Shown here piece after piece: positions 3,104 to 21,736 of a DNA stretch of 64,000 bases; the first letter of the stretch is position 1, and each line of letters opens with the position of its first letter. The translations under genes were made by a program, and so were the position numbers. The stretch is taken from positions 1,584 to 65,583 of the forward strand of contig JAFGXO010000171.1 of assembly GCA_016936595.1 (NCBI GenBank), read 5' to 3'. Under the pieces are notes generated by a model, which worked only from the letters and a program-made list of their open reading frames with translations, made no database searches and was not told where the DNA came from. The stretch is from Bacteroidales bacterium (GTDB taxonomy: Bacteria; Bacteroidota; Bacteroidia; Bacteroidales; JAFGUD01).

Positions 3104-3118
3104 TTTTTTAAATTTTAA

Positions 3119-3208
3119 TTAAGTTTTTAAAGTTTTAAAGTTTTTAAAGTTTTTAAAGTCTGCTGAAAGTTAATTTTCTTTCAACAATATAACTTTAAAC
3201 TTTAAACT
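3119..3208. repeat. Short tandem (AGTTTTTAA x4) and inverted (AACTTTAAACTTTAAACT) repeats in the beta-gamma intergenic spacer
   Basis: Read directly: AAGTTTTTAAAGTTTTAAAGTTTTTAAAGTTTTTAAAGTC, then hairpin TGAAAG-TTAATTTT-CTTTCA, then AACTTTAAACTTTAAACT, which is the approximate reverse complement of the left repeats. Confidence 0.7.
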
Positions 3209-3210
3209 CA

Positions 3211-6076: not shown

Positions 6077-6448
6077 ATGAAAAAACAATTTTTAGGTTTA
6101 CGTACTGTTGTTTATTTTGTGCCTAATTTAAAAGAAGCTAAAAAATGGTATTCTAAAATTTTTGAAACGGCTCCTTATTTTGACGAAGCTTATTATGTAG
6201 GGTTTAATATTGCCGGCTACGAATTGGGTTTACTACCCGAAGAAAAACCTATAACTGATAAAACAAACAGTGTAGTAACATATTGGGGGGTTGAAGATAT
6301 TAATTTTTCTTATGATTTTATGTTAAAAAATGGTGCTATTGAAGTTGAAAAACCAACTAACGTAGGAGGAGAATTAATGACAGCTTCAGTAAAAGATCCG
6401 TGGGGTAATGAAATTGGAATTATTTACAACCCTCACTTTAAAGTTTAA
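6077..6448 (+). CDS. VOC-family (glyoxalase/bleomycin-resistance fold) protein
   Basis: 123 aa. It matches the VOC pattern in size and in LRTVVYFVPNLKEAKKWY...GFNIAGYELGL...VKDPWGNEIGII. Confidence 0.7.
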   Translation: MKKQFLGLRTVVYFVPNLKEAKKWYSKIFETAPYFDEAYYVGFNIAGYELGLLPEEKPITDKTNSVVTYWGVEDINFSYDFMLKNGAIEVEKPTNVGGELMTASVKDPWGNEIGIIYNPHFKV

Positions 6449-7864: not shown

Positions 7865-8989
7865 TTAAATTATTTTTTCAAGATAAGAACTTGTTCCGGT
7901 TTTTAATATTTCTTGGATTACTTTAGCCGTAACATCACCTATTCCGTTAATGCTTGCAATTTGTTTTGGTTGAAGAAATTGTATGTTTTGTTCTATTTTA
8001 GATATTTGATAAGCTGCGTAGCCATATGGATTTTTATGTCCTCGTAATTTTAACAAGTAATCTAAATGCTCAAGAATAACCACAACTAAATCATTTTTAG
8101 AAACAAAACGATAGTATAATTTAGGAGGAATTCGCTTTGGAATTTTAAGATTTGTTGCAATTTTATCAAACAAATAATGAGCAGATTGGTTATAATCTTG
8201 GTGAGCTTCGCCCCATTTACTATTATGTTCGTAAATAATATCAAACTGAGTTGTTAAATCGGAAAAATGTTTATTTATTACGTTCATAAAATAATCTTTT
8301 TGTCGCCCCGGTTTAAGTGTCATTGTTCCAAAAATTACAAAGTCAATACCTACCTCTTTTCCTCTCCGAAGAGTTTCTTCCACCATTTTAGGACTGTCTG
8401 TAATAAATGGGATTAACGGCATTAAAAACATACCAACCGAAATACCGTTTTGTTTAAGCTTTTTAATTAATGTAAATCGTTCAGAAGGGCTTGCTACACC
8501 AGGCTCAAAAATTTTGCTGATATTATCGCTTGCCGACGAAAAACTAAAGCTAACAATTGCTCTGCTTTGATTGTTTATTTTTTTAATGATGTCAATATCT
8601 CGCTCTACGAGAGTTGATTTTGTTAAAATATGTACGGGATATTTGTATTTGTACAAGAGTTCTAATGTTTTACGTGCAAGTTCATATTTTTTTTCTGCCG
8701 GTTGATACGAATCACTAACTCCACCGCCAAGCATCATAAAACTTCGGGGCATGGGTTTTCTCTTTCGTGCCGGATCTAATTCTTTTTGCAAAATTTCAAT
8801 TGCATTTGTTTTTATAGAAATATCTCTGCCAAAATCTCCTTCTACGTAATAACCTTCGGCTCTGCCATCACAATAGGCACAATTATGTGAACAGCCTCTA
8901 TATAAATTTAGCCCGTAATGTGTTAAAAACCAACTTTCAATTTTTTTATTTTTTCTTAGAATTGTTTTTGCTTGTGTTTCGGTTATCAT
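7865..8989 (-). CDS. Radical SAM protein (SPL/PA0069-like) with a C-terminal helix-hairpin-helix
   Basis: 374 aa. It has the CxxxCxxC cluster motif CSHNCAYCDG near the N-terminus and a C-terminal IASINGIGDVTAKVIQEIL HhH-like motif. Confidence 0.8.
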   Translation of the reverse strand: MITETQAKTILRKNKKIESWFLTHYGLNLYRGCSHNCAYCDGRAEGYYVEGDFGRDISIKTNAIEILQKELDPARKRKPMPRSFMMLGGGVSDSYQPAEKKYELARKTLELLYKYKYPVHILTKSTLVERDIDIIKKINNQSRAIVSFSFSSASDNISKIFEPGVASPSERFTLIKKLKQNGISVGMFLMPLIPFITDSPKMVEETLRRGKEVGIDFVIFGTMTLKPGRQKDYFMNVINKHFSDLTTQFDIIYEHNSKWGEAHQDYNQSAHYLFDKIATNLKIPKRIPPKLYYRFVSKNDLVVVILEHLDYLLKLRGHKNPYGYAAYQISKIEQNIQFLQPKQIASINGIGDVTAKVIQEILKTGTSSYLEKII

Positions 8990-8990
8990 C

Positions 8991-9052
8991 TGTTAGGGTT
9001 TTGAGAGTTTCAATTTTCGGGTTTCGGGTTTCGGGGTGCGGGTTTCGGGGTT
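8991..9052. repeat. G-tract intergenic element (TTAGGGTTTT...GGGTTTCGGGTTTCGGGGTGCGGGTTTCGGGG)
   Basis: Five G3-4 runs separated by 3-4-nt loops at 9019-9050, in an otherwise AT-rich spacer. It shares TTAGGGTTT, TTTCGGGTT and TTTCGGGGTG blocks with the element at 17181-17237. Confidence 0.75.
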
Positions 9053-9069
9053 CATATTTTTGTGTCATT

Positions 9070-9897
9070 TTAATAATCGTGTCTGTAGTAAATTCGGTTT
9101 TTGTATTTGTATTTATCAATTTTAAGAATATCCATAACTTTTAATGGTTCATTTTTAACTAAATTTCTGCAGGCTCTATATGCTATCCAATATGAATTTT
9201 TATTGCCGGAATCTGCTAATTTTTGCACAATTTTGTAAACTCTTTCTTTATCAATTCTTGCCCAATCACTTAAATTATTGCCAACAGACGAACGCGGATA
9301 ATCTTTTGATTCTGCAAATAAGTTTTTAATAACTTCAAAACAAAATTCAGGATTTTTTTTCAGCCAACTATTATCAGCAACGGGTCTGATAGATTCGCTT
9401 GCAAACCGCCTTGACATTGGATTATCTGAAGTAACTTGCTTTAAATACCATTTTTTCATTCTATCGGGAAATGTTTTTACAAGTTTACGAACAAAGCCGG
9501 CTGAGCATTCTCTTACTTCCCATTTTTCATCTGTTGCCGCTTGTTCAAAAATTGGTAAAACTTCTTCAATTTTTTTTGTTTCAACGCCATAAATTGAAAT
9601 TATCTGAACGCCAAAACTTCTTACAAATTGCTCAAATTGAATATTTGTATATAAATTAGAAGCAAATTCAAGCACATCTATATCATTTTGTTTAAGCATA
9701 GGATACATTTCAATACCCAATTTTTTAATTATACCATATCTACCGTACGAAATACGCTTTTTTTCAGGAATATCATTTCTAATTATTGAAATAAGTTTGT
9801 CTATTTCAGCTGCAACTTCATCAATAGTCAATACATTTATATGTTTAACTATAGTTTCTGCTAATTTTAAATGAGCTTGATTTATTAGTTGAAACAT
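9070..9897 (-). CDS. HEAT-repeat DNA alkylation repair-like protein (AlkC/AlkD superfamily)
   Basis: 275 aa, all-helical repeat character. DEKWEVRECSAGFVRKL and SSVGNNLSDWARIDKERV resemble conserved blocks of DNA-alkylation-repair (COG4335-type) proteins. The assignment is by memory of motifs only. Confidence 0.55.
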   Translation of the reverse strand: MFQLINQAHLKLAETIVKHINVLTIDEVAAEIDKLISIIRNDIPEKKRISYGRYGIIKKLGIEMYPMLKQNDIDVLEFASNLYTNIQFEQFVRSFGVQIISIYGVETKKIEEVLPIFEQAATDEKWEVRECSAGFVRKLVKTFPDRMKKWYLKQVTSDNPMSRRFASESIRPVADNSWLKKNPEFCFEVIKNLFAESKDYPRSSVGNNLSDWARIDKERVYKIVQKLADSGNKNSYWIAYRACRNLVKNEPLKVMDILKIDKYKYKNRIYYRHDY

Positions 9898-10018
9898 GAA
9901 TTTATATTATCTTTAAAGTTTAATTATCTGAAAATAAAGATATCTAAAAATAAACTAAATTCAAATAAAAATATGTTTATCATCGTAAAAATATTTTTAG
10001 ACATCAATTTAAAAACAA

Positions 10019-12505
10019 TTAATCGTTAACTCTCCAAGCCTTCCAAACATTTTGAATTGCGGGATTAATATTAACGTTAGGAGTTTGGGCTTTAAACCCA
10101 TTTTGAGGATTTAAAGTAGTGGTATTAACCTCATTACTTATTTGATCAAATAATTGACCATAAGTTAAATTACCCTTAGTATTTTGCAAAGTTTTTAACA
10201 AATAATAAGTAAATAAACCGTGCTGTTTATCAATATATTCTTGCGAAATTTCTTTTTCGGAAGAAGCAGCAAAAACCACCAAATTAGAACTAACACTATT
10301 AGCATTTGGCGGACGATATAAACCGGTTTTTGCATTAACTAACAACTGACCACTTTTACCACCACCACTAAAACAAGCATCAACAAAAACAAAAACTTTT
10401 TTGTTTCCATCAGGGCTAATTTGAGCATAAAAATCGCCTAATTTAATTCCAAAAGTTCCTATATAATCAGATTTTACACCAACAGGCACTAAATACGATT
10501 CACCTTGGTCGTCTTGAGTTCCATGACCACTATAATAAACATAAAATTCGCTTCCGTCTGGTTTACTTTTAATAAGTTTTGCAAAATTATCAATATAAAG
10601 TTTAATGTAAGTAGCATTTGCATCTTCGATATAATAAATATGATTAGTATTATCCGGAACGCCCAAAACATTAACGCAATACTGTTTAAAAATTGAAGCA
10701 TCATTTATTGAAAAAAGAATATCAACCATATCGGAGCCATGTTCAATATAATGAGAATTACCAATAATTAGAGCATACCGATTGTTATTTGCAGACCCTG
10801 CTTGAGGTATATTAACATCAACATCGCTCTGGCCAACAACAACTTGAGTGTTATCATCAATTGTTGGATCATTTGTTGGAGCGGGCACAATATTTACAGG
10901 ATCAAAGTTATTAACAACCACTATTGAATTAAAAACAACAGGAATACTTGCATCGTAAAAATATGTTTTATTGTTTACAGGATTAGTTATAGTTGCCTGA
11001 TAAATCTCTAATTTGTCTTCGGACGTTAAATTATATTTCATGTCGGTAAAAGTAAGTTTTGAAAAACTATCTTCAAAAATAGGAGCTTCGTTGATAGGAA
11101 CCGGCACGTACATTGGATTAAAATAAGTTAAAGAAATTTTAAAAACTTCGCTTTCCGAATCATAATCAAGTGTAGAAAGTTTAATATCTTTAATAAAAAT
11201 TGGTTCGCCAATTTGGCCGAAAAAAGTATCGGTAAGTTCAGTTATTTTTTGTTGACGAGTATGGATTGTTACCCTAAGTTGATAATCTTCAAGCTTTTCG
11301 TAGCGTCCTTTTTGTTGCCAATCATTAATTTTATTTTCGATGTAAGTAGTTGCTCTTTCGCGAATAGAAAAGTTCAATTTTACTAACCATAAATCTTTTT
11401 TCCCTGCCCCCCTGGATTTTGTATGTCCAACAACAGCCAAACCACCGTCAAAAGTTTTGGTAAATGCAGTAGCCTTTTCTTCTTCGGAACCACCAAAAGT
11501 ATTTTCCCACAACAAATTACCCATGTTATCTATTCCTAAAATCCAATAGTCCCAATCGCCTGCCCCCGAAGATTTTGTACTTCCGGCAATTAAATACCCG
11601 TCACCATTTGGAATAATGCTACAAAGTTCATCATTTTGTCCACCGCCATAAGTTTTATTCCAAATTTTATTTCCGTTATCATCAATTTTTATAAGCCAAC
11701 CATCAATCCAACCTGCTCCATACGATGAAGTATTCCCTGCAATAAGATAACCTCCGTCGTTAGCTTTTACAACATAAACAGCTTCGTCGCCACCACCGCC
11801 TTCTAATGAGAATTCCCATTTTACTGTGCCGACTGCGTCAATTTTTAAAGCATATAAATCAGCAAATCCATCAACTGTTGCTTGGGAATACCCAACAATT
11901 AAGTATCCATTATCCGAAGTTTGGATAATCTTATTTCCAAAATTCTTATATTGACTTTGATAGGATTTTGTCCATTTTTGAGATCCATTTTTGTCAGTTT
12001 TATACAAATTGATGGAATATTTGTCTTCTACAGAACTTGAATTACCAAGCACCATCATACCTCCATCATTTGTATTTATTACATCTAATCCATAATTACT
12101 CTCATATTGTCCAAAACTTTTATTCCACTGATTACCCAAAGAACTGCTAAATTTTAGTAAAGAGATAGTATTCCCATCAACAGAGTTTGAGAAACCAAGT
12201 GTAGCATATCCATTATCAGAAGTTTGTATAACCGAACAATAATTGGCAATAAAAACTCCTCTTGGCGAATTTTCATTTAAAAGATTTCCTTCAATATCGG
12301 TTTTTATTATCCATGGAAGCCATCCAACTCCAATCGATTGATTTCCACCAATAACTAATTCATAGTTTCTACTTTGAATAATTGATGTTGCCGATTGATT
12401 TTTTTTGTCGCCAAAAGTTTTATCCCACTCAATTTGAAGCGAACTTTGCCCCATAACAAAAAAGGAAGAGAACAATAAAAATAAAAAAAATGATAATTTT
12501 TTCAT
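10019..12505 (-). CDS. Secreted beta-propeller-repeat / caspase (peptidase C14) fusion protein
   Basis: 828 aa. Signal peptide MKKLSFFLFLLFSSFFVMGQ. About 7 degenerate ~45-aa repeats follow (xDGGYLIAGxTxSxGAGxxDxWLIKxDxxGNxxW). The C-terminal caspase fold has RYALIIGNSHY, the His dyad residue in YYSGHGTQ and the Cys in FVDACFSGG. Confidence 0.85.
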   Translation of the reverse strand: MKKLSFFLFLLFSSFFVMGQSSLQIEWDKTFGDKKNQSATSIIQSRNYELVIGGNQSIGVGWLPWIIKTDIEGNLLNENSPRGVFIANYCSVIQTSDNGYATLGFSNSVDGNTISLLKFSSSLGNQWNKSFGQYESNYGLDVINTNDGGMMVLGNSSSVEDKYSINLYKTDKNGSQKWTKSYQSQYKNFGNKIIQTSDNGYLIVGYSQATVDGFADLYALKIDAVGTVKWEFSLEGGGGDEAVYVVKANDGGYLIAGNTSSYGAGWIDGWLIKIDDNGNKIWNKTYGGGQNDELCSIIPNGDGYLIAGSTKSSGAGDWDYWILGIDNMGNLLWENTFGGSEEEKATAFTKTFDGGLAVVGHTKSRGAGKKDLWLVKLNFSIRERATTYIENKINDWQQKGRYEKLEDYQLRVTIHTRQQKITELTDTFFGQIGEPIFIKDIKLSTLDYDSESEVFKISLTYFNPMYVPVPINEAPIFEDSFSKLTFTDMKYNLTSEDKLEIYQATITNPVNNKTYFYDASIPVVFNSIVVVNNFDPVNIVPAPTNDPTIDDNTQVVVGQSDVDVNIPQAGSANNNRYALIIGNSHYIEHGSDMVDILFSINDASIFKQYCVNVLGVPDNTNHIYYIEDANATYIKLYIDNFAKLIKSKPDGSEFYVYYSGHGTQDDQGESYLVPVGVKSDYIGTFGIKLGDFYAQISPDGNKKVFVFVDACFSGGGKSGQLLVNAKTGLYRPPNANSVSSNLVVFAASSEKEISQEYIDKQHGLFTYYLLKTLQNTKGNLTYGQLFDQISNEVNTTTLNPQNGFKAQTPNVNINPAIQNVWKAWRVND

Positions 12506-14161: not shown

Positions 14162-15196
14162 TTACAACTTTTTAATATCATCAACAGATAAGCCTGTTTC
14201 TTTAGATATTTCTTCTACTGGTGTCCCTACTTGTAACATCATTTTTGCCATTTTATTTTGAAATGTATGCTTTTCGTGTTCAGCGTTTTCTTTCTCTTGT
14301 AATGCTTTTTCTTTTTCCTGTTGAGCTTTTTCTTTTTCCTGTTGAGCTTTTTCTTTTTCCTGTTGAGCTTTTTCTTTTTCCTGTTGAGCTTTTTGAACTT
14401 CTGTTATCGCCTTTTCTCTTGCTTTCAAAGCCTCTTCTTCTTTCTTTTGAGCCTCCTTCATTTTTTTTATAGCATCATCAATAGCAGAGCGTTCTATTCT
14501 TATTCTATCCCAATAATTATCATAATAGTCCAACTCGTTTTTTGAAAAAGCTGATACTTGCAAATGTTCCAAAGCTTCTTTTATTTCTTCGTCTGCATTA
14601 AAATCTTCATCAACATTGATAGTATTTTCATTTATCTCGGTTAAAAAACGCAACCACAAATTAGTTATTTTCTTTTCTGTAAATGATTTTGGTGTAAACT
14701 TTGGTAGTTCAATAAATATCAATTCAATACCATCAATTACTTCATTAGGAATTTCTTTATGAGCTAATTTATAATGATGATAAAATTTATCTTTATATTT
14801 TTCCTCTGTAAGATAAATATCATCAACTAAACTAAGCCCATAAACGGGCAGTAATTTATCGTATTTACCTCCTCTATCTAACTGTTTTACATACGCTTTA
14901 CCCGAATTAAAAAGCATACGACTCTTAAATGAATTAGTCCAATACATTTGCATTTCCACAATAAACTGTCGGCCAAAATTGTCTGTGCACTTTACATCTA
15001 CCACTGAATGTTTTAATTCGGGAATTTCAGGCAATAACGCAGGATCTTGATAAATTAAACTTTCAATATACTGGTCATCATTTAATGGCAATAGCGAATT
15101 TAAAAAACTTTTCATTATGTTGGCATTCTGACCAAATATTTTACGAAAAGTTAAATCATTTTTTGGATCTAAATATTTTATATTACGAAAGTCCAT
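14162..15196 (-). CDS. Rpn-family recombination-promoting nuclease / PD-(D/E)XK putative transposase with a C-terminal heptad-repeat tail
   Basis: 344 aa. The N-terminus LDPKNDLTFRKIFGQ and the nuclease core VVDVKCTDNFGRQFIVEMQ are typical of the PDDEXK_2/Rpn family. The C-terminus contains (EKAQQEK)x4. Confidence 0.8.
   Translation of the reverse strand: MDFRNIKYLDPKNDLTFRKIFGQNANIMKSFLNSLLPLNDDQYIESLIYQDPALLPEIPELKHSVVDVKCTDNFGRQFIVEMQMYWTNSFKSRMLFNSGKAYVKQLDRGGKYDKLLPVYGLSLVDDIYLTEEKYKDKFYHHYKLAHKEIPNEVIDGIELIFIELPKFTPKSFTEKKITNLWLRFLTEINENTINVDEDFNADEEIKEALEHLQVSAFSKNELDYYDNYWDRIRIERSAIDDAIKKMKEAQKKEEEALKAREKAITEVQKAQQEKEKAQQEKEKAQQEKEKAQQEKEKALQEKENAEHEKHTFQNKMAKMMLQVGTPVEEISKETGLSVDDIKKL
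14305..14388. repeat. Perfect 21-bp tandem repeat x4 (GCTTTTTCTTTTTCCTGTTGA) inside the Rpn-like CDS
   Basis: Four identical contiguous copies were read directly (14305-14325, -14346, -14367, -14388), plus degenerate flanking copies. They are in frame, 7 codons per unit. Confidence 0.9.
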
Positions 15197-15262: not shown

Positions 15263-16672
15263 ATGAGAAAAAAAAGAAACAATAAAGTTATAGAAAATCT
15301 TGAAATAATCGACATCGTACCCGAAGGAAAAGGTCTTGGACGAAAAGATGATTTAGTAATATTTGTAAAAAATGTTGTTCCGGGAGATATTGTTGATGTT
15401 GTTATTACTCGAAATAAACCTTCTTTTAAAGAAGGAAAAGCAATAAATTTTCATAAATATTCCAATTTACGAGTTAACGCAAAATGCAGCCACTTTGATC
15501 TTTGCGGAGGCTGTAAGTGGCAAAACATTACTTACGAACAACAGCTTAAATATAAACAAAAAATTATTGAAGATGCTTTTCAGCGAATTGCTAAAGTAGA
15601 AATTGATGAAATTTTTCCTATTATGCAATCGCCGGAAACTTACTTTTATAGAAATAAATTAGAATACACTTTTTCTTCTCGAAAATGGCTCGAAAAATCA
15701 CAACTGCAAGATACTGAAAACATTAACATGAATGGATTAGGATTTCACCTGCCCGGAATGTTCGACAGAATTTTAGACATTAACCAATGCTACTTACAAA
15801 GCACTATTTCAGATAAAATTAGAAATGGTGTTCGTGAATTTGCTTTTAAAAATGAATATACTTTTTACGATACTCGCGAACATCAAGGGTTTTTACGTAA
15901 TTTAATTGTACGCAGTTCAAATTCTACAGGCGAATATATGATTGTGCTTATTGTTGGCAAAAACGATGAACAAAAAATTTCTGATATTCTGAATTTTATT
16001 GCTGATAATTATAACGAAGTAACTTCAATATATTATATTGTTAACGAAAAGAAAAATGATAGTTACTCTGACTTAGAGCCGATTTTATTTAAAGGAAACG
16101 AATTTATCATCGAAAATTTAGGCAACTTAAAATTTCAGATAGGACCAAAATCTTTCTTCCAAACAAACACAAATCAGGCTAAACAAATGTACGATGTTGC
16201 ATTAAAATTTGCCGACCTCGATGGAACCGAAACTGTTTACGATTTATATACAGGAACCGGAACAATTGCATTATATGCTTCGCAAAAAGCCAAAAATGTT
16301 ATTGGTGTTGAAATTATTAAAGAAGCCATTGACGATGCAAACAAAAATGCAAAAATTAACAATATCTCAAATGCAAAATTTGTTGTGGGCGATATGAAAG
16401 ATGTTCTTAACAATCAATTTATTGCTGAAAATGGAAAACCTGACGTTGTTTTGCTTGATCCCCCTCGTGCCGGTGTACATCAAGACGCTTTAGAGGTTAT
16501 TAAAAATGCTGAACCAAATAAAATTGTTTATATTAGTTGCAATCCGGGTACTCAAGCAAGAGATGTTGCTATTCTTTCTGACAAATACGATGTTCTTAAA
16601 ATTATGCCCGTTGATATGTTTCCGCATACTTTTCATGTTGAAAATATAGCTCTGCTTAAACTCAAAAAATAA
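15263..16672 (+). CDS. rlmD: 23S rRNA (uracil-C5)-methyltransferase RlmD/RumA
   Basis: 469 aa. It has an N-terminal TRAM-like segment, the Fe-S cysteines CSHFDLCGGCKWQ, the SAM-MTase motifs DLYTGTGTIAL and LDPPRAG, and the catalytic Cys in YISCNP. Confidence 0.9.
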   Translation: MRKKRNNKVIENLEIIDIVPEGKGLGRKDDLVIFVKNVVPGDIVDVVITRNKPSFKEGKAINFHKYSNLRVNAKCSHFDLCGGCKWQNITYEQQLKYKQKIIEDAFQRIAKVEIDEIFPIMQSPETYFYRNKLEYTFSSRKWLEKSQLQDTENINMNGLGFHLPGMFDRILDINQCYLQSTISDKIRNGVREFAFKNEYTFYDTREHQGFLRNLIVRSSNSTGEYMIVLIVGKNDEQKISDILNFIADNYNEVTSIYYIVNEKKNDSYSDLEPILFKGNEFIIENLGNLKFQIGPKSFFQTNTNQAKQMYDVALKFADLDGTETVYDLYTGTGTIALYASQKAKNVIGVEIIKEAIDDANKNAKINNISNAKFVVGDMKDVLNNQFIAENGKPDVVLLDPPRAGVHQDALEVIKNAEPNKIVYISCNPGTQARDVAILSDKYDVLKIMPVDMFPHTFHVENIALLKLKK

Positions 16673-16736
16673 TTTAAACTTTATATTTATTGTTGATAAA
16701 ACTCTTTTCAGTTATTCAACTTTAAATAAAAAACTT

Positions 16737-17186
16737 ATGAAACTTAAAAAAATACATACAAGCAAATTGATTGAATTTTTCAGCGTTTCGACAATCTACA
16801 GCATTGAGTTACCGTTAATTGAAGCCGGTATTAGTGCCGGATTCCCTTCGCCGGCTGATGATTTTTTAGATATTTCAATCGACTTAAATAAAGAGCTTAT
16901 TAAAAATCCTTCGGCTACATTTTTTGGAAGAGTTAACGGCGATTCTATGAAAGATCTTGGTATTGATGATGGCGATTTACTTATCATAGATAAAAGTATT
17001 GAACCTCAAACCGGTAAAATTGCTGTTTGTTTTATTGATGGTGAATTTACTTTAAAAACTATTCAATTTGAAGCTAATTTATGCTGGCTTGTTCCGGCTA
17101 ACGAAAAATATAAACCTATAAAAGTTACTCCCGATAATGAATTTATTGTATGGGGTATAGTAAAACACGTAATTAAATCTTTTTAG
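16737..17186 (+). CDS. umuD: Translesion polymerase V accessory subunit UmuD (S24 LexA-like peptidase)
   Basis: 149 aa. It has ISAGFPSPADDF, the catalytic Ser in VNGDSMKD and a Lys in GEFTLKT. It lies immediately upstream of umuC. Confidence 0.85.
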   Translation: MKLKKIHTSKLIEFFSVSTIYSIELPLIEAGISAGFPSPADDFLDISIDLNKELIKNPSATFFGRVNGDSMKDLGIDDGDLLIIDKSIEPQTGKIAVCFIDGEFTLKTIQFEANLCWLVPANEKYKPIKVTPDNEFIVWGIVKHVIKSF

Positions 17187-17237
17187 GGTTTCGGGTTGTG
17201 AGCTGCAAGATACGGGTTTTCGGGGTGAGAGGAGAGG
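17181..17237. repeat. G-tract intergenic element, second copy, abutting the umuD stop codon
   Basis: TTTTAGGGTTTCGGGTTGTGAGCTGCAAGATACGGGTTTTCGGGGTGAGAGGAGAGG. It shares sequence blocks with 8991-9052 and fills most of the unusual 107-bp umuD-umuC gap. Confidence 0.75.
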
Positions 17238-17293
17238 TATTCTGGTTTTAAAAAATTGCAAGCTATTGGTTGTTAATTACAAATTACTTATAA

Positions 17294-18556
17294 ATGTTCG
17301 CTTTAGTTGATTGTAATAATTTTTACGCATCATGCGAGCGGGTTTTTCGCCCCGACTTGAATGGCAAACCCGTTGTAATACTCTCAAACAACGATGGTTG
17401 CGTTATTGCCCGAAGCAACGAAGCAAAAGCTCTTGATATTCCTATGGGTGCTCCGGCTTTTAAATTTGCCGAAATCTTTAAACAAAACAACGTTAATGTT
17501 TTCTCTTCTAATTTTGCTCTTTATGGCGATATGAGTGCCAGAGTAATGAATATTTTATCTGAAATTGCTCCCGAAATTGAAATTTACAGCATCGATGAAG
17601 CTTTTCTTAAATTTACAGGTTTCCAAAATTACGATTTAAACGATTACGGTTTAATGATTCGTAAAAAAATACTTAAACATACCGGTATTCCGGTTAGTGT
17701 TGGGTTTGCTCCCACAAAAGCTCTATCAAAAGTTGCCGTTCATGTTGCAAAAAAATTCCCCGAACGAACTAAAGGAGTGTATGTTATCGATAACGAAGAA
17801 AAAAGAATAAAAGCTTTAAAGTGGCTACAAATTGAAGATGTGTGGGGTATTGGACGAAAACATGCCGAAAAATTAAAAAATGTTGGAATCTTAAATGCTC
17901 TTCGATTTACCGAAACATCGGATTCGTGGATAAAAAAACACATGTCGGTATTAGGACTTCGTCTAAAAAATGAACTCCTCGGAAAATCAACTCTTGATTT
18001 AGATAAAGTTAAAAACAAAAAAAGTATAGCCACAACACGAACTTTTGAAAAAAATTATGCCGATTTTGAACTCATAAAAGAACGAGTTGTTACTTTTGCC
18101 GTAACTTGTTCTGAAAAACTACGTAAGCAAAAATCAAACTGCAATTCAATAATGATTTTTTTACACACAAATTGGCACAGAAAAGACTTACCACAAATAA
18201 ACCCAAATATTGTAATACAACTACCCTACCCTACAAACTCGGCTATTGAAATAGCAAAATTTGCCGTAAAAGGATTAAAACAAATTTTTAAAGAAGGATA
18301 TTTATACAAAAAAGCAGGTGTTGTAGTTATGAATTTTACGCCCGAAAATCCACAACAATTATCTATTTTTGAAAACTCAAATCCTAAGCACAAAAAGCTT
18401 ATGAAAACTATAGATCATATTAACAACAATATTGGAGCAAAAAAACTTAAACTTGCAGCTCAGGATTTAGAAAGAACATGGAAAATGAATCAAGAAAAAA
18501 TTTCGCCTCGATACACAACAAAAATCAACGAAATTTTAAAAATAAAAACCGATTAA
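17294..18556 (+). CDS. umuC: Y-family DNA polymerase V catalytic subunit UmuC
   Basis: 420 aa. MFALVDCNNFYASCERVFRPDL...VVILSNNDGCVIARS...YSIDEAF are canonical UmuC/DinB palm motifs. Confidence 0.9.
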   Translation: MFALVDCNNFYASCERVFRPDLNGKPVVILSNNDGCVIARSNEAKALDIPMGAPAFKFAEIFKQNNVNVFSSNFALYGDMSARVMNILSEIAPEIEIYSIDEAFLKFTGFQNYDLNDYGLMIRKKILKHTGIPVSVGFAPTKALSKVAVHVAKKFPERTKGVYVIDNEEKRIKALKWLQIEDVWGIGRKHAEKLKNVGILNALRFTETSDSWIKKHMSVLGLRLKNELLGKSTLDLDKVKNKKSIATTRTFEKNYADFELIKERVVTFAVTCSEKLRKQKSNCNSIMIFLHTNWHRKDLPQINPNIVIQLPYPTNSAIEIAKFAVKGLKQIFKEGYLYKKAGVVVMNFTPENPQQLSIFENSNPKHKKLMKTIDHINNNIGAKKLKLAAQDLERTWKMNQEKISPRYTTKINEILKIKTD

Positions 18557-18605
18557 ATTCAATTTTAATCAAAACTATAATAAATTTGCGTTTTATAAAA
18601 GTTAG

Positions 18606-19136
18606 ATGAAAAAAAATTTTTTAGCAATATTATTTATCTTAATGCTTACAGCTCCATTTTTAGGAAGCGTTATTTTTATAAAATTTCAGAAAAATGCTAT
18701 CAAAAATGAAGTGAAAAATTATTTGCTAAAAAACACAACAATTAACAACCTTTACAAGATAACTCTTTCTACTAAAGATGCTAAAAACCTAATAAATTGG
18801 AAAAGTAATTATGAATTTGAATATCAAAATAAAATGTTTGATGTTGCAAAATCCGAAATAAAAAAAGACTCCATTAGCTTTTGGTGCTTACAAGATTTTA
18901 AAGAAACTGAGTTAAATAAAAAAACCGGAATTATTGTTAATATTTTACTCGGAAATAATCAAACGAATAAAAACAACCAAAATAATTTTATATCATTTTT
19001 AAATAACCTTTTTTTTACAGATATTTTAAAATGGAAATTTCACATAAATCAATCAAAGTTAAATGATTTTAATATTTTGGTATTTTTTATGTCACAAAAT
19101 ATTTCGCCCTTAACTCCCCCTCCAAAATTATTTTAA
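18606..19136 (+). CDS. Hypothetical membrane-anchored protein
   Basis: 176 aa with an N-terminal TM/signal segment (FLAILFILMLTAPFLGSVIFI). It lies upstream of and co-directional with the TonB-dependent receptor. No family recognised. Confidence 0.45.
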   Translation: MKKNFLAILFILMLTAPFLGSVIFIKFQKNAIKNEVKNYLLKNTTINNLYKITLSTKDAKNLINWKSNYEFEYQNKMFDVAKSEIKKDSISFWCLQDFKETELNKKTGIIVNILLGNNQTNKNNQNNFISFLNNLFFTDILKWKFHINQSKLNDFNILVFFMSQNISPLTPPPKLF

Positions 19137-19333
19137 TTAAAATAATTTATTGTAATAATTAGTAGTTTTTGTAGCTAATTAACAAACATTGTTACCAAAA
19201 CACAACTAAAAATTGCACAAAAAAACCAACGACATACGGTTTTTAAATCATTAACATTCAACACATTAGCTATATGTTTAAATCTGTATTGCTATAACAG
19301 AACACATATGCATAATTAAAACAAAAAAAACTA

Positions 19334-21736
19334 ATGAAAAAAATATTTTTTATACTTATTGCATTATTGTTTTCAATATATGCAAACTCTCAAGTAATTA
19401 CAATTAAGAGTAAAACTAACGAGCAGCCACTTGATTTGGTTGGAATAACAAGTAATAAATCAAGTGCATTTTTAACAACAAATTCCAAAGGCGAAGCCGA
19501 TATATCAGTATTTAAAGGAGCAGATGAAATACACCTCCAATTAATTGGTTATGCAACAGTTATAAAAAGTTATGATGAACTAATAAATAACAATATTGTT
19601 TTTCTTGAAATGGAAAGCATAAACATGGACAGAATAGTTGTTTCGGCAAACCGTTCGGGACAATCGTCGGCAAGTGTGCCAACAAAAATTACATCTATAG
19701 CACGAAAAGACGTAACACTTTTAAATCCACAAACTGCAGCCGATTTACTAACAATTTCGGGAAACGTTTTTATTCAAAAAAGTCAACAAGGAGGCGGAAG
19801 CCCTATGATTAGAGGTTTTTCAACAAATCGTCTTTTATATACCGTTGACGGAGTGCGTATGAACACTGCTATTTTTAGAGGCGGAAACATTCAAAACGTC
19901 ATTTCTCTTGATCCTTTTGCAATTGAAAATACCGAGGTGTTTTTTGGCCCCGGCTCGGTTATTTATGGCAGCGATGCTATTGGTGGCGTAATGAGTTTTC
20001 AAACACTTGTAGCTGAACTTTCAGCTACCGATGAACCTTTTATTACCGGAAATGCCACTACCAGATATTCTTCGGCTAACAACGAAAAAACTGTTCATTT
20101 TGACGTAAATGTAGGTTGGAAAAAATGGGCTCTTTTAACAAGCATTAGCTCAAATGATTATGGAGATTTGCGTATGGGAACAAACGGTCCCGAAGAATAT
20201 TTGCGTCCGTTTTATGTTATTCGTCAGGATAGTGTTGATATTATCCAAACTAACAACAATCCTTTAATTCAAAAACCTTCAGGATATTCTCAAATAAATA
20301 TGATGCAAAAATTACGCTTTAAACCAAATCATAATTGGGACATTCAATACGGTTTTCATTATTCCGAAACATCTGACTATGCTCGTTACGATCGTCATAT
20401 CAGATATAAAAAAGGATTGCCAAGATACGGCGAATGGAGTTATGGTCCTCAAATTTGGATGATGAACAATTTAAACATCACAAATAATAATGATATTTTT
20501 TTATACGATCAACTTGCAATCAGATTAGCTCAGCAATATTTTGAAGAAAGCCGAATTAGCAGAGATATTAACGATGATTTAAGAGAAACAAGAACCGAAA
20601 AAGTTGACGCTTACTCGGCAAACATAGATTTATCTAAAACTATTGGTGTAAAAAATACTATTTTTTACGGAGGTGAATTTATTTTAAATAATGTAACTTC
20701 AACCGGTATAAACACAGATATTTCAACAAATGTAAGCGTTCCCGGACCTTCAAGATATCCTCAAGCATCGTGGTTATCTTACGGTGCTTATATTACTGAT
20801 AAAATTGAATTTAATGATAAATTTATTATTCAAGCCGGATTAAGATATAATCAATATCAATTAGATGCTGTTTTTGACACAACATTTTATCCGTTTCCGT
20901 TTACTACGGCTAATTTAAACGATGGAAAATTTAACGGAAGCTTTGGTTTTGTTTTTCGACCAACAAAAAAATGGATAATTTCGGCAAACGCCGCAACCGG
21001 TTTCCGTTCGCCTAATGTTGATGATGTTGGAAAAGTTTTTGATTCTGAACCCGGTTCGGTTATTGTTCCTAATCCAAATTTAAAAGCCGAATATGTTTAT
21101 AGTGCCGATTTTGGTGTTGCTAAAATGTTTGGTGATTTTATAAAAATTGATTTTAATGTTTACTACACAATATTAGAAAATGCTTTAGTTAGAAGAAATT
21201 ATACTTTGAATGGAATAGACAGCATTATGTACGACGGAACTTTGAGTCAAGTACAAGCCATACAAAATGCAGCCGTAGCAAACGTTTATGGTTTACAAGC
21301 AGGCTTCAACATAAAACTTCCAAGCGGATTTGCTTTAAAATCAGATTTTAATTACCAAAAAGGCCAAGAAGAACTCGACGACGGCACTGTTAGTCCTTCT
21401 CGACATGCTCCACCTTGGTTTGGTGTTACCAGATTAAGTTACTCAACAAATGACCTTAGTTTTCAGTTTTATTCTTTATATAGTGGTGAAAAAAGTTTTG
21501 AAGAAATGCCCGCCGAAGAAATAGGCAAAGATTACATGTATGCTATTGATGCTGAAGGAAATCCGTATTCTCCGGCTTGGTTCACTTTAAATTTTAAAAC
21601 CATGTATAAAATTAATCAAAACTTTACAGTTTCTGCCGGATTAGAAAACATAACCGATCAACGCTACCGTCCATATAGTTCGGGAATTGTTGCTCCTGGT
21701 AGAAATCTTGTGTTTTCGATGAAAGCAAAATTTTAA
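19334..21736 (+). CDS. TonB-dependent outer-membrane receptor with an N-terminal CarboxypepD_reg-like domain
   Basis: 800 aa. It has a signal peptide, plug motifs (DRIVVSANR, PMIRGFSTNRLLYTVDGVRMN, YGSDAIGGVMSF), a long beta-barrel region, and a C-terminal NLVFSMKAKF ending in Phe. Confidence 0.9.
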   Translation: MKKIFFILIALLFSIYANSQVITIKSKTNEQPLDLVGITSNKSSAFLTTNSKGEADISVFKGADEIHLQLIGYATVIKSYDELINNNIVFLEMESINMDRIVVSANRSGQSSASVPTKITSIARKDVTLLNPQTAADLLTISGNVFIQKSQQGGGSPMIRGFSTNRLLYTVDGVRMNTAIFRGGNIQNVISLDPFAIENTEVFFGPGSVIYGSDAIGGVMSFQTLVAELSATDEPFITGNATTRYSSANNEKTVHFDVNVGWKKWALLTSISSNDYGDLRMGTNGPEEYLRPFYVIRQDSVDIIQTNNNPLIQKPSGYSQINMMQKLRFKPNHNWDIQYGFHYSETSDYARYDRHIRYKKGLPRYGEWSYGPQIWMMNNLNITNNNDIFLYDQLAIRLAQQYFEESRISRDINDDLRETRTEKVDAYSANIDLSKTIGVKNTIFYGGEFILNNVTSTGINTDISTNVSVPGPSRYPQASWLSYGAYITDKIEFNDKFIIQAGLRYNQYQLDAVFDTTFYPFPFTTANLNDGKFNGSFGFVFRPTKKWIISANAATGFRSPNVDDVGKVFDSEPGSVIVPNPNLKAEYVYSADFGVAKMFGDFIKIDFNVYYTILENALVRRNYTLNGIDSIMYDGTLSQVQAIQNAAVANVYGLQAGFNIKLPSGFALKSDFNYQKGQEELDDGTVSPSRHAPPWFGVTRLSYSTNDLSFQFYSLYSGEKSFEEMPAEEIGKDYMYAIDAEGNPYSPAWFTLNFKTMYKINQNFTVSAGLENITDQRYRPYSSGIVAPGRNLVFSMKAKF

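Follow-up and report, generated by a model that had tools for sequence, protein, structure and literature searches.

Intervening sequences (IVS) of 23S rRNA genes that carry an S23p open reading frame (ORF), as in Coxiella burnetii and Leptospira, combine a gene of the family PF05635 with complementary arms that form a stem. The IVS of Coxiella is described as a selfish element that contains an S23p ORF, is bordered by ends forming a 28-bp stem, and is excised through cleavage of this stem by RNase III (PMC4990558). Genes annotated as "four helix bundle protein" (TIGR02436/PF05635) are found also outside rRNA, in Bacteroidota and Cyanobacteriota. The STRR of cyanobacteria, heptanucleotide tandem repeats, were reportedly described by Mazel et al. 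in 1990, and to our knowledge they have not been linked to IVP genes. In turn, umuD and umuC of E. coli, with their one-base stop/start overlap, represent the canonical form of the operon in which the element discussed here is located.

The window, that is, the whole 64-kb stretch of DNA that was analysed (from an uncultured member of Bacteroidales, with a G+C content of 31.6%), contains a umuDC operon in which the two genes are separated by a non-coding spacer starting with a series of G-tracts. These G-tracts probably represent an orphan arm of an IVS-like S23p/IVP cassette, a decaying remnant with a passive effect. The nucleotide sequence supports assigning the insert to a specific repeat class, the heptamer arrays of the IVP-cassette type, and its status as the remnant of a cassette is one that we infer from the similarity of the arm alone.

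The umuD–umuC junction and its spacer

The gene umuD (positions 16737–17186, forward strand) encodes a protein of 149 residues, an S24 peptidase corresponding to the autoproteolytic subunit of Pol V, which matches Pfam PF00717 (Peptidase_S24) and NCBIfam NF007621 above their cut-offs (158 bits for the latter, with a cut-off of 110). [quoted passage not shown] The gene content is thus that of a umuDC operon, with the gene of an S24-peptidase UmuD followed on the same strand by that of a Y-family UmuC. The TAG stop codon of umuD occupies positions 17184–17186 and the non-coding gap that follows extends over 107 nt (17187–17293), whereas the first GGG is found at 17186–17188, so that its first base is the final G of the stop codon. 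Both the 107-bp spacer and the G-run beginning on the last base of TAG had been reported in the earlier note, and both are correct; the 52-nt string quoted there matches exactly at 17186–17237. The T-rich tail that it described is present as well, but its composition is better termed A+T-rich.

In eight related loci of Bacteroidia with the same gene order and UmuC proteins 60–80% identical (L002, L003, L004, L143, L140, L006, L005, and L013), the umuD stop and the umuC start are −1, −1, +1, +1, +3, +5, +12, and +17 nt apart, respectively, the value of +5 for L006 being uncertain, as the inferred start of umuC there is not a start codon. The premise that the two genes are normally tightly linked is therefore borne out by this comparison, in which the 107 nt of the window stand against −1 to +17 nt and neither overlap nor near-abutment is retained. 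A long gap is found only in the window organism and in its sister species (131 nt), and the loss of the tight juxtaposition of umuD and umuC is real. In two other relatives (L010, with UmuC 82% identical, and L141, with 73%) umuC has no adjacent umuD, which indicates that tight pairing is common in the clade and not obligatory. A second assembly (L001) has an identical spacer and differs by one SNP in 5.5 kb; both assemblies may come from the same source sample.

The spacer begins with an array of five in-phase heptamers, GGGTTTC, GGGTTGT, GAGCTGC, AAGATAC, and GGGTTTT (17186–17220, forward strand), which is G-rich on the mRNA strand and of the type of an orphan 5′ arm. The following segment, CGGGG with a purine-rich run (17221–17240, forward strand; GGGGTGAGAGGAGAGG), carries the fourth G-tract of the quadruplex proposed earlier. 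Purine repeats of the GGTGAAA type, resembling this segment, are also present upstream of IVP genes in the metagenomic locus L084. The remainder of the spacer is the A+T-rich leader of umuC (17241–17293, forward strand), with a weak residual period of 7 (AAATTGC, AAGCTAT, TGGTTGT, TAATTAC, and AAATTAC) and a lag-7 identity of 0.43 (p 0.04). Over the whole spacer the autocorrelation has a specific peak at lag 7 (0.45, z 3.8), which is absent from four control spacers. Four runs of three or more G with loops of up to 21 nt are found at only three loci of the 64 kb. A hidden small ORF or readthrough product was considered and rejected, since TAG GGT TTC GGG TTG TGA offers four codons only, as was a 60-residue ORF on the reverse strand (17079–17261), which overlaps the 3′ end of umuD and is unsupported.

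In the sister species (L009 and L148–L150), whose UmuC is 94% identical, the corresponding spacer of 131 nt is G-poor and has no run of three G; the G-tracts are thus not conserved at the orthologous position and, judged by this comparison, are dispensable in that species. Over 14.7 kb of synteny the genes of the window and the sister are 81–93% identical and three spacers are 90–100% identical, whereas the umuD–umuC spacers share 44% identity, with the spacers upstream of umuD (49%) and of the gene of a TonB receptor (51%) similarly diverged. Direct alignment of the two umuD–umuC spacers, at the same 44% identity, is marginal relative to shuffled sequences (z 3.5), and they may represent either one fast-diverging ancestral insert or a junction that was hit twice. 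The sister spacer nevertheless has a lag-7 peak of 0.45 (z 3.0), again absent from the four controls. That period 7 has survived the turnover of the sequence in the two species could reflect selection on the periodic structure.

Heptamer arrays in the window and around IVP genes

A second array (9005–9053, reverse strand) is located in the 80-nt gap that leads from an alkD-like gene (9070–9897, reverse strand) to a splB-like radical-SAM gene (7865–8989, reverse strand). Tandem Repeats Finder assigns to positions 9015–9053 a period of 7 with 5.6 copies. On its own mRNA the array reads (GAAACCC)n, the orientation of a 3′ arm, directly 5′ of the splB-like start codon; its G-rich strand is antisense to the operon, so that the mRNA carries C-tracts. 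The umuD–umuC copy is a single arm of the 5′ type and the copy at 9019–9053 a single arm of the 3′ type, each in the sense of its own operon. The two arrays were also considered as the ends of one island, a possibility rejected because they are direct and not inverted and the order of the intervening genes is kept in the sister species. In addition, a gene-less, two-arm, A+T-rich repeat hairpin (3104–3210, reverse strand) fills a 107-nt gap within an operon, between the subunit genes of a 2-oxoacid:ferredoxin oxidoreductase (TPP_enzyme_C and POR). It consists of an array of period 9, which as the left arm lies outside the scoring by the heptamer matrix introduced below, followed by complementary AACTTTA units of period 7, and its RNA fold has a z of −3.4. 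The layout of this repeat resembles the flanks of the IVP gene at position 2997 of L084.

A metagenome scan for the core common to both G-rich window arrays returned at least 120 loci, mostly telomere-like TTTAGGG arrays or bacterial repeats of high G+C content, so that those of low G+C content alone were useful. A scan of viral contigs yielded three matches in contexts of high G+C content and was uninformative. In L084 and L102, both bacterial and low in G+C, and in L082, arrays flank small genes of the 23S_rRNA_IVP or four helix bundle protein family (PF05635 and TIGR02436, matched in Pfam and NCBIfam), with G-rich heptamers 5′ of the IVP gene and complementary heptamers 3′ of it. These three of the six cassette loci were reached by way of a pattern taken from the window; to break this circularity, the other three (L144, L146, and L147) were selected by protein homology only, as homologues of one IVP protein.

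In the loci found by homology, the IVP gene is positioned between co-directional genes of an operon, nuoF-like and gltD-like in L144 and L146, and mraY and murD in L147, where the full cassette spans 9725–10260. An array of GGGTTRC or GAGTTGC units starts at, or no more than about 10 nt past, the stop codon of the preceding gene, and its complement follows the stop of the IVP gene. The junctions read TGA|GTTACGGG in L144, TAG|GTTACGGG in L146, and TAG...GGGTTGCG in L147, to be compared with TAG|GG at 17184–17188 of the window. The arm-bracketed layout is present at all six IVP loci examined, and the duplexes between the arms of real cassettes have z values of −10.2, −6.1, −5.5, and −2.3. In the minimum-energy fold of the whole cassette of L147, the arms enclose the entire ORF (z −5.1). 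The operons in which IVP-flanking arrays sit serve cell division, redox enzymes, ABC transport, and chemotaxis, and an equivalent layout of the flanks is found in other phyla, in Riemerella anatipestifer and in a 23S rRNA intervening sequence of Azospirillum, where Rfam confirms LSU rRNA. We found no published description of arms made of heptamer arrays or of intra-operon, stop-adjacent cassettes; with subscription journals outside the coverage of the search, this counts as weak evidence.

A position matrix, low in information, was built from 22 heptamers of L144, L146, and L147 and run along the window on either strand, with five units in phase per site. The two G-rich arrays are its highest-scoring sites, with 47.4 bits for 9019–9053 and 38.6 bits for 17186–17220, and the next site reaches 12.8 bits; in 30 simulated sequences of 64 kb the maxima were 3.7 ± 3.7 bits, the highest being 14.0. 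Thus, by a matrix derived independently from cassettes, the umuD–umuC array has the in-phase, 7-nt composition of arms of the G(G/A)GTTNC type, and it also has their placement, that of a 5′ arm in sense orientation at the upstream stop codon between co-directional genes. An orthologous, degenerate array precedes splB in the sister species (L148, 2406–2433, 24.3 bits), and one is also kept, in degenerate form, in a relative at 80%.

In approximately 90 kb of IVP-bearing loci, 15 of the 17 arrays above 20 bits adjoin an IVP gene (within 250 nt), and the remaining two form a gene-less inverted pair in L082. None was present in approximately 105 kb of IVP-free relatives; the one exception to this association identified since is the orthologous array that precedes splB in the sister. 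No single orphan arm was seen among the other loci sampled. In the window itself, a profile search of all six-frame ORFs detected none of the family PF05635/TIGR02436, and a relaxed tblastn search of the spacers detected no remnant of IVP coding sequence. Nor was a partner found for the arm at 17186–17240, the duplex z being 0.0 with the rest of the spacer, −0.4 with the spacer downstream of umuC, and −1.65 with that upstream of umuD; a distant partner arm enclosing umuC was likewise rejected by the duplex test. With ORF and stem absent and the composition and placement of an arm present, the umuD–umuC element is placed outside the cassettes proper, as a derivative that consists of an orphan arm.

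Origin of the insert and its possible effect

In the scenario that we regard as the most probable, a cassette or an array would have entered the junction right after the umuD stop codon in the recent ancestry of the lineage. Whereas the two arms of full cassettes elsewhere would pair into a long stem around the IVP ORF, the present insert would be a fast-evolving and probably non-adaptive remnant, from which the IVP ORF and the 3′ arm are gone. Because neither a terminator nor a promoter was found, continuing co-transcription is expected, with a transcript that would still comprise umuD and umuC. Processing by RNase III is not predicted, since the junction has one arm, no ORF, and no stem, and double-stranded RNA for this enzyme would accordingly be missing from it. 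Bacteroidota are not known to rely on Shine–Dalgarno pairing, and umuC would be initiated independently on its A+U-rich leader, not by the stop/start coupling predicted for its relatives. The main effect of the insert would then be passive, with the translation of umuC uncoupled from that of umuD. The history could also be reversed, with the arrays as primary elements, either landing pads or products of slippage, that were later invaded by IVP genes. The suggestion of the earlier note that insertion merely took place where it was tolerated, at a permissive site, agrees with the restriction of the long spacer to this organism and its sister and with the occurrence of the same type of array at a second operon junction, and it gains further from the finding that arrays of this type are arms of IVP cassettes in unrelated operons elsewhere.

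Rather unlikely, but the strongest of the alternatives, is that the heptamer array is functional even though orphaned. It might serve as a DNA or RNA recognition platform for an IVP-family protein encoded elsewhere or for another factor, or as a landing pad for cassettes, with binding that would affect how the umuC portion of the mRNA is processed or translated, or how stable it is. The best argument for such a role is the persistence of period 7 through the turnover of the sequence in both sister species. At every locus sampled, across phyla, IVP genes come with arrays, which suggests that protein and repeats belong together, and the array near splB has retained its position in the sister and, in degenerate form, in the relative at 80%. 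In addition, one IVP homologue has a weak bAvd-like match in Pfam, Avd being a nucleic-acid-binding accessory protein of diversity-generating retroelements. However, there is no IVP gene within the 64 kb, the sequence of the unit has not been preserved between umuD and umuC, where the spacer of the sister reaches 1.6 bits with the heptamer matrix, and the two copies in the window differ in how they are oriented on their mRNAs.

The earlier note envisaged, as a regulatory device, an RNA G-quadruplex or hairpin that could uncouple or throttle the synthesis of UmuC relative to UmuD. Such a structure in the umuDC mRNA, which would lower the yield of UmuC by impeding ribosomes or polymerase, now appears improbable. 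Four G-tracts of three or more residues lie within 40 nt on the sense strand, with a borderline G4Hunter peak of 1.40, and the spacer does abolish the stop/start overlap of the relatives. The loops between these tracts are nevertheless of 4, 18, and 5 nt, and with its 18-nt central loop the motif fails the definitions with loops of 1–7 and 1–12 nt and matches only when loops of 21 nt are allowed; the G-quadruplex option of ViennaRNA returned an unchanged structure, with no quadruplex predicted. The spacer RNA contains no stable hairpin and is less structured than its shuffled versions (z +2.1; the folds of 197 of 200 shuffles are equally good or better), and no intrinsic terminator, that is, a G+C-rich hairpin with a U-run, was found in 16400–18800, so that a hairpin or terminator in the spacer was rejected. 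A structured or small RNA was rejected as well, the covariance models of Rfam 15 giving no match at E ≤ 1 in 16000–19500. Moreover, the sister species, in which the genes are ordered identically, has no such G-tracts, the stronger, canonical G4 motif of the window (9019–9042, G4Hunter 1.92) is antisense to its operon, and the relatives in which umuC has no adjacent umuD (L010 and L141) indicate that tight co-expression is not obligatory in the clade.

We consider it similarly improbable that the array is an unrelated microsatellite, in which replication slippage amplified a heptamer and the likeness to IVP arms is accidental. Arrays of (TTTCGGG)n do occur widely in metagenomes, whatever the G+C content, many of them on short contigs with no IVP gene and many within telomere-like TTTAGGG arrays. 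The umuD–umuC array, however, matches cassette arms in position, orientation, and its start at a stop codon, and also in the variants of its unit, GAGCTGC being close to GAGTTGC, and AAGATAC to GGGATAC and AAGATCC. Furthermore, loci of low-G+C Bacteroidia with enough flanking sequence had arrays that adjoin IVP genes.

[quoted passage not shown] The spacer also lacks, even with one mismatch allowed, a −7 box of the form TAnnTTTG, which is the consensus of Bacteroidetes promoters.

Comparison with known systems

With the insert read as an orphan arm, the outcome for umuDC is mostly deflationary, in that the odd spacer would be an intrusion specific to the lineage and not a conserved control device. 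Through the G-tracts, an otherwise anonymous repeat between genes would, in turn, be connected with the arms of S23p/IVP cassettes, and these share their gene family and layout with the intervening sequences of 23S rRNA. The cassettes sampled here are embedded in essential operons, one of them between mraY and murD, and their arms are built of 7-nt units; if this were general, it would provide a simple sequence signature by which S23p/IVP cassettes and their remnants could be found. It raises the questions of how such cassettes move and whether their stems or orphan arms reshape the expression of operons.

We can speculate, tentatively and with low confidence, that inverted heptamer arrays together with an S23p/IVP four-helix-bundle gene constitute widespread, apparently undescribed, IVS-like selfish cassettes that home just past stop codons in operons, from Bacteroidota to the rRNA of Alphaproteobacteria, with the arrays as the cis-recognition module, and that orphan arms are still active, either bound in trans or as landing pads, altering the expression of downstream genes. 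If this were true, the orphan arm between umuD and umuC would break the coupling between the mutagenic subunit of the polymerase and the subunit that regulates it.

The full cassettes resemble the 23S rRNA IVS of Coxiella burnetii and Leptospira in gene family and in their stem-forming complementary arms, and the Azospirillum IVS, with an ORF of the S23p type, has arms of period 7 as well. The umuD–umuC element differs from these rRNA sequences in being located at an operon junction in mRNA and in having one arm, no ORF, and no stem. With the loci of four helix bundle protein genes outside rRNA it shares the heptamer vocabulary of their 5′ flanks, a start at the upstream stop codon, and the same direction as the operon, whereas neither the spacer nor the window contains a gene of this kind. 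Cyanobacterial STRR are likewise short intergenic arrays of tandem 7-nt units, with different unit sequences, and heptanucleotide arrays are present at the flanks of the Nostoc IVP gene examined. Repeats of the REP/BIME and MITE types are also small, non-coding, and located in the gaps of co-transcribed genes, where they can be labile, but the umuD–umuC copy is a tandem array of 7-mers in which no palindrome, terminal inverted repeats, or target-site duplication was found. Regulatory RNA G-quadruplexes have in common with this junction four sense-strand tracts of three or more G before a start codon, and differ from it with respect to the long central loop, the borderline score, the lack of conservation of the tracts, and the absence of a predicted quadruplex. 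Finally, the canonical umuDC operon has the same gene pair, gene order, and protein families, to which the lineage of the window adds a non-coding insert of 107 nt, or 131 nt in the sister species.

Intergenic divergence and repeats near umuDC and splB

Comparison of the window with the corresponding locus of the sister species (L148) reveals a bimodal distribution of intergenic identity, with values of either 0.90-1.00 or 0.44-0.51. The umuD promoter region (window 16673-16736) and the region upstream of the TonB-receptor gene (19137-19333) are, like the umuD-umuC spacer, unalignable with L148, and in this comparison neither of the two has a period of 7. Among the genes, the lowest conservation between the sister species (81% nucleotide identity) is found in the PDDEXK_2 transposase-like gene located on the minus strand (14162-15196). 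This gene includes a 21-nt tandem repeat (14271-14417, ~6 copies, 89% match), which is translated as (QEKEKAQ)n in the protein.

A C/A-rich heptamer array placed immediately 5' of the splB start codon is common to the window organism and the sister species, and its degenerate form is also present in an 80% relative (L013). The window organism carries an alkD-like DNA-alkylation-repair gene 5' of splB (9070-9897), the place of which is taken in the sister species (region compared, L148 2384-2771) by ~290 nt of A+T-rich non-coding DNA.

In two relatives, L010 (9375-11263) and L141 (2806-4260), with UmuC identity of 82% and 73%, respectively, umuC has no neighbouring umuD; the gene that precedes umuC in L010 encodes a DUF6272 protein. 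In Allomuricauda sp. M10 (L007), umuC precedes umuD, and a C-rich repeat, CTAACCCCAACTCTAACCCCAACCCTAACCCCAAC, lies ~300 nt 5' of umuC (2654-2681).

Repeats in other genomes and metagenomes

Five short metagenome contigs of high G+C content (L023, L055, L110, L132, and L137) include (TTTCGRG)n arrays and their complements positioned around G+C-rich terminator-like hairpins, with no IVP gene on any of them. Such flanked hairpins of high-G+C bacteria may be gene-less versions of the element class to which the IVP cassettes belong. The motif CCCCCACACCCCCCGAAGGGG occurs twice in an intergenic region (6117-6200) of L006, a Bacteroidia MAG of 46% G+C.

A single sample, metagenome Ga0307489, accounts for ~40 of the at least 120 loci of the pattern scan, many of them short contigs made up of extended, degenerate arrays of TTTCGGG/TTTAGGG units. 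Such arrays probably represent telomere-like repeats of eukaryotes and bear no relation to the bacterial heptamer element, although any exact-pattern scan for the latter is dominated by arrays of this type.

IVP cassettes in operons and a 23S rRNA intervening sequence

Small IVP (four-helix-bundle) genes are found within conserved operons, for example at the mraY-murD junction of the cell-division cluster. Heptamer arrays in inverted orientation, beginning at the upstream stop codon, flank these genes on both sides. The cassettes are located at 9725-10260 in L147, at about 9835-10480 in L144 and L146, at 2997-7830 in L084, and at 5470-6117 in L102. L084 carries three IVP genes in 5 kb, with repeat units that differ gene by gene (GGGTTTC-, GGTGAAA-, and AAAGTTT-type).

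A genuine 23S rRNA intervening sequence is present on plasmid AZO_p2 of Azospirillum lipoferum 4B (L154, NC_016586.1 13792-15345; Rfam LSU rRNA, 925 bits). It holds an unannotated S23p-like ORF, and its arms, CAGAGGACGGATGACAGAGGACGGAGGACAG ... CCGTCCTCTGTCTTCTGTCATCCGTCTTCTG, also have a period of 7.
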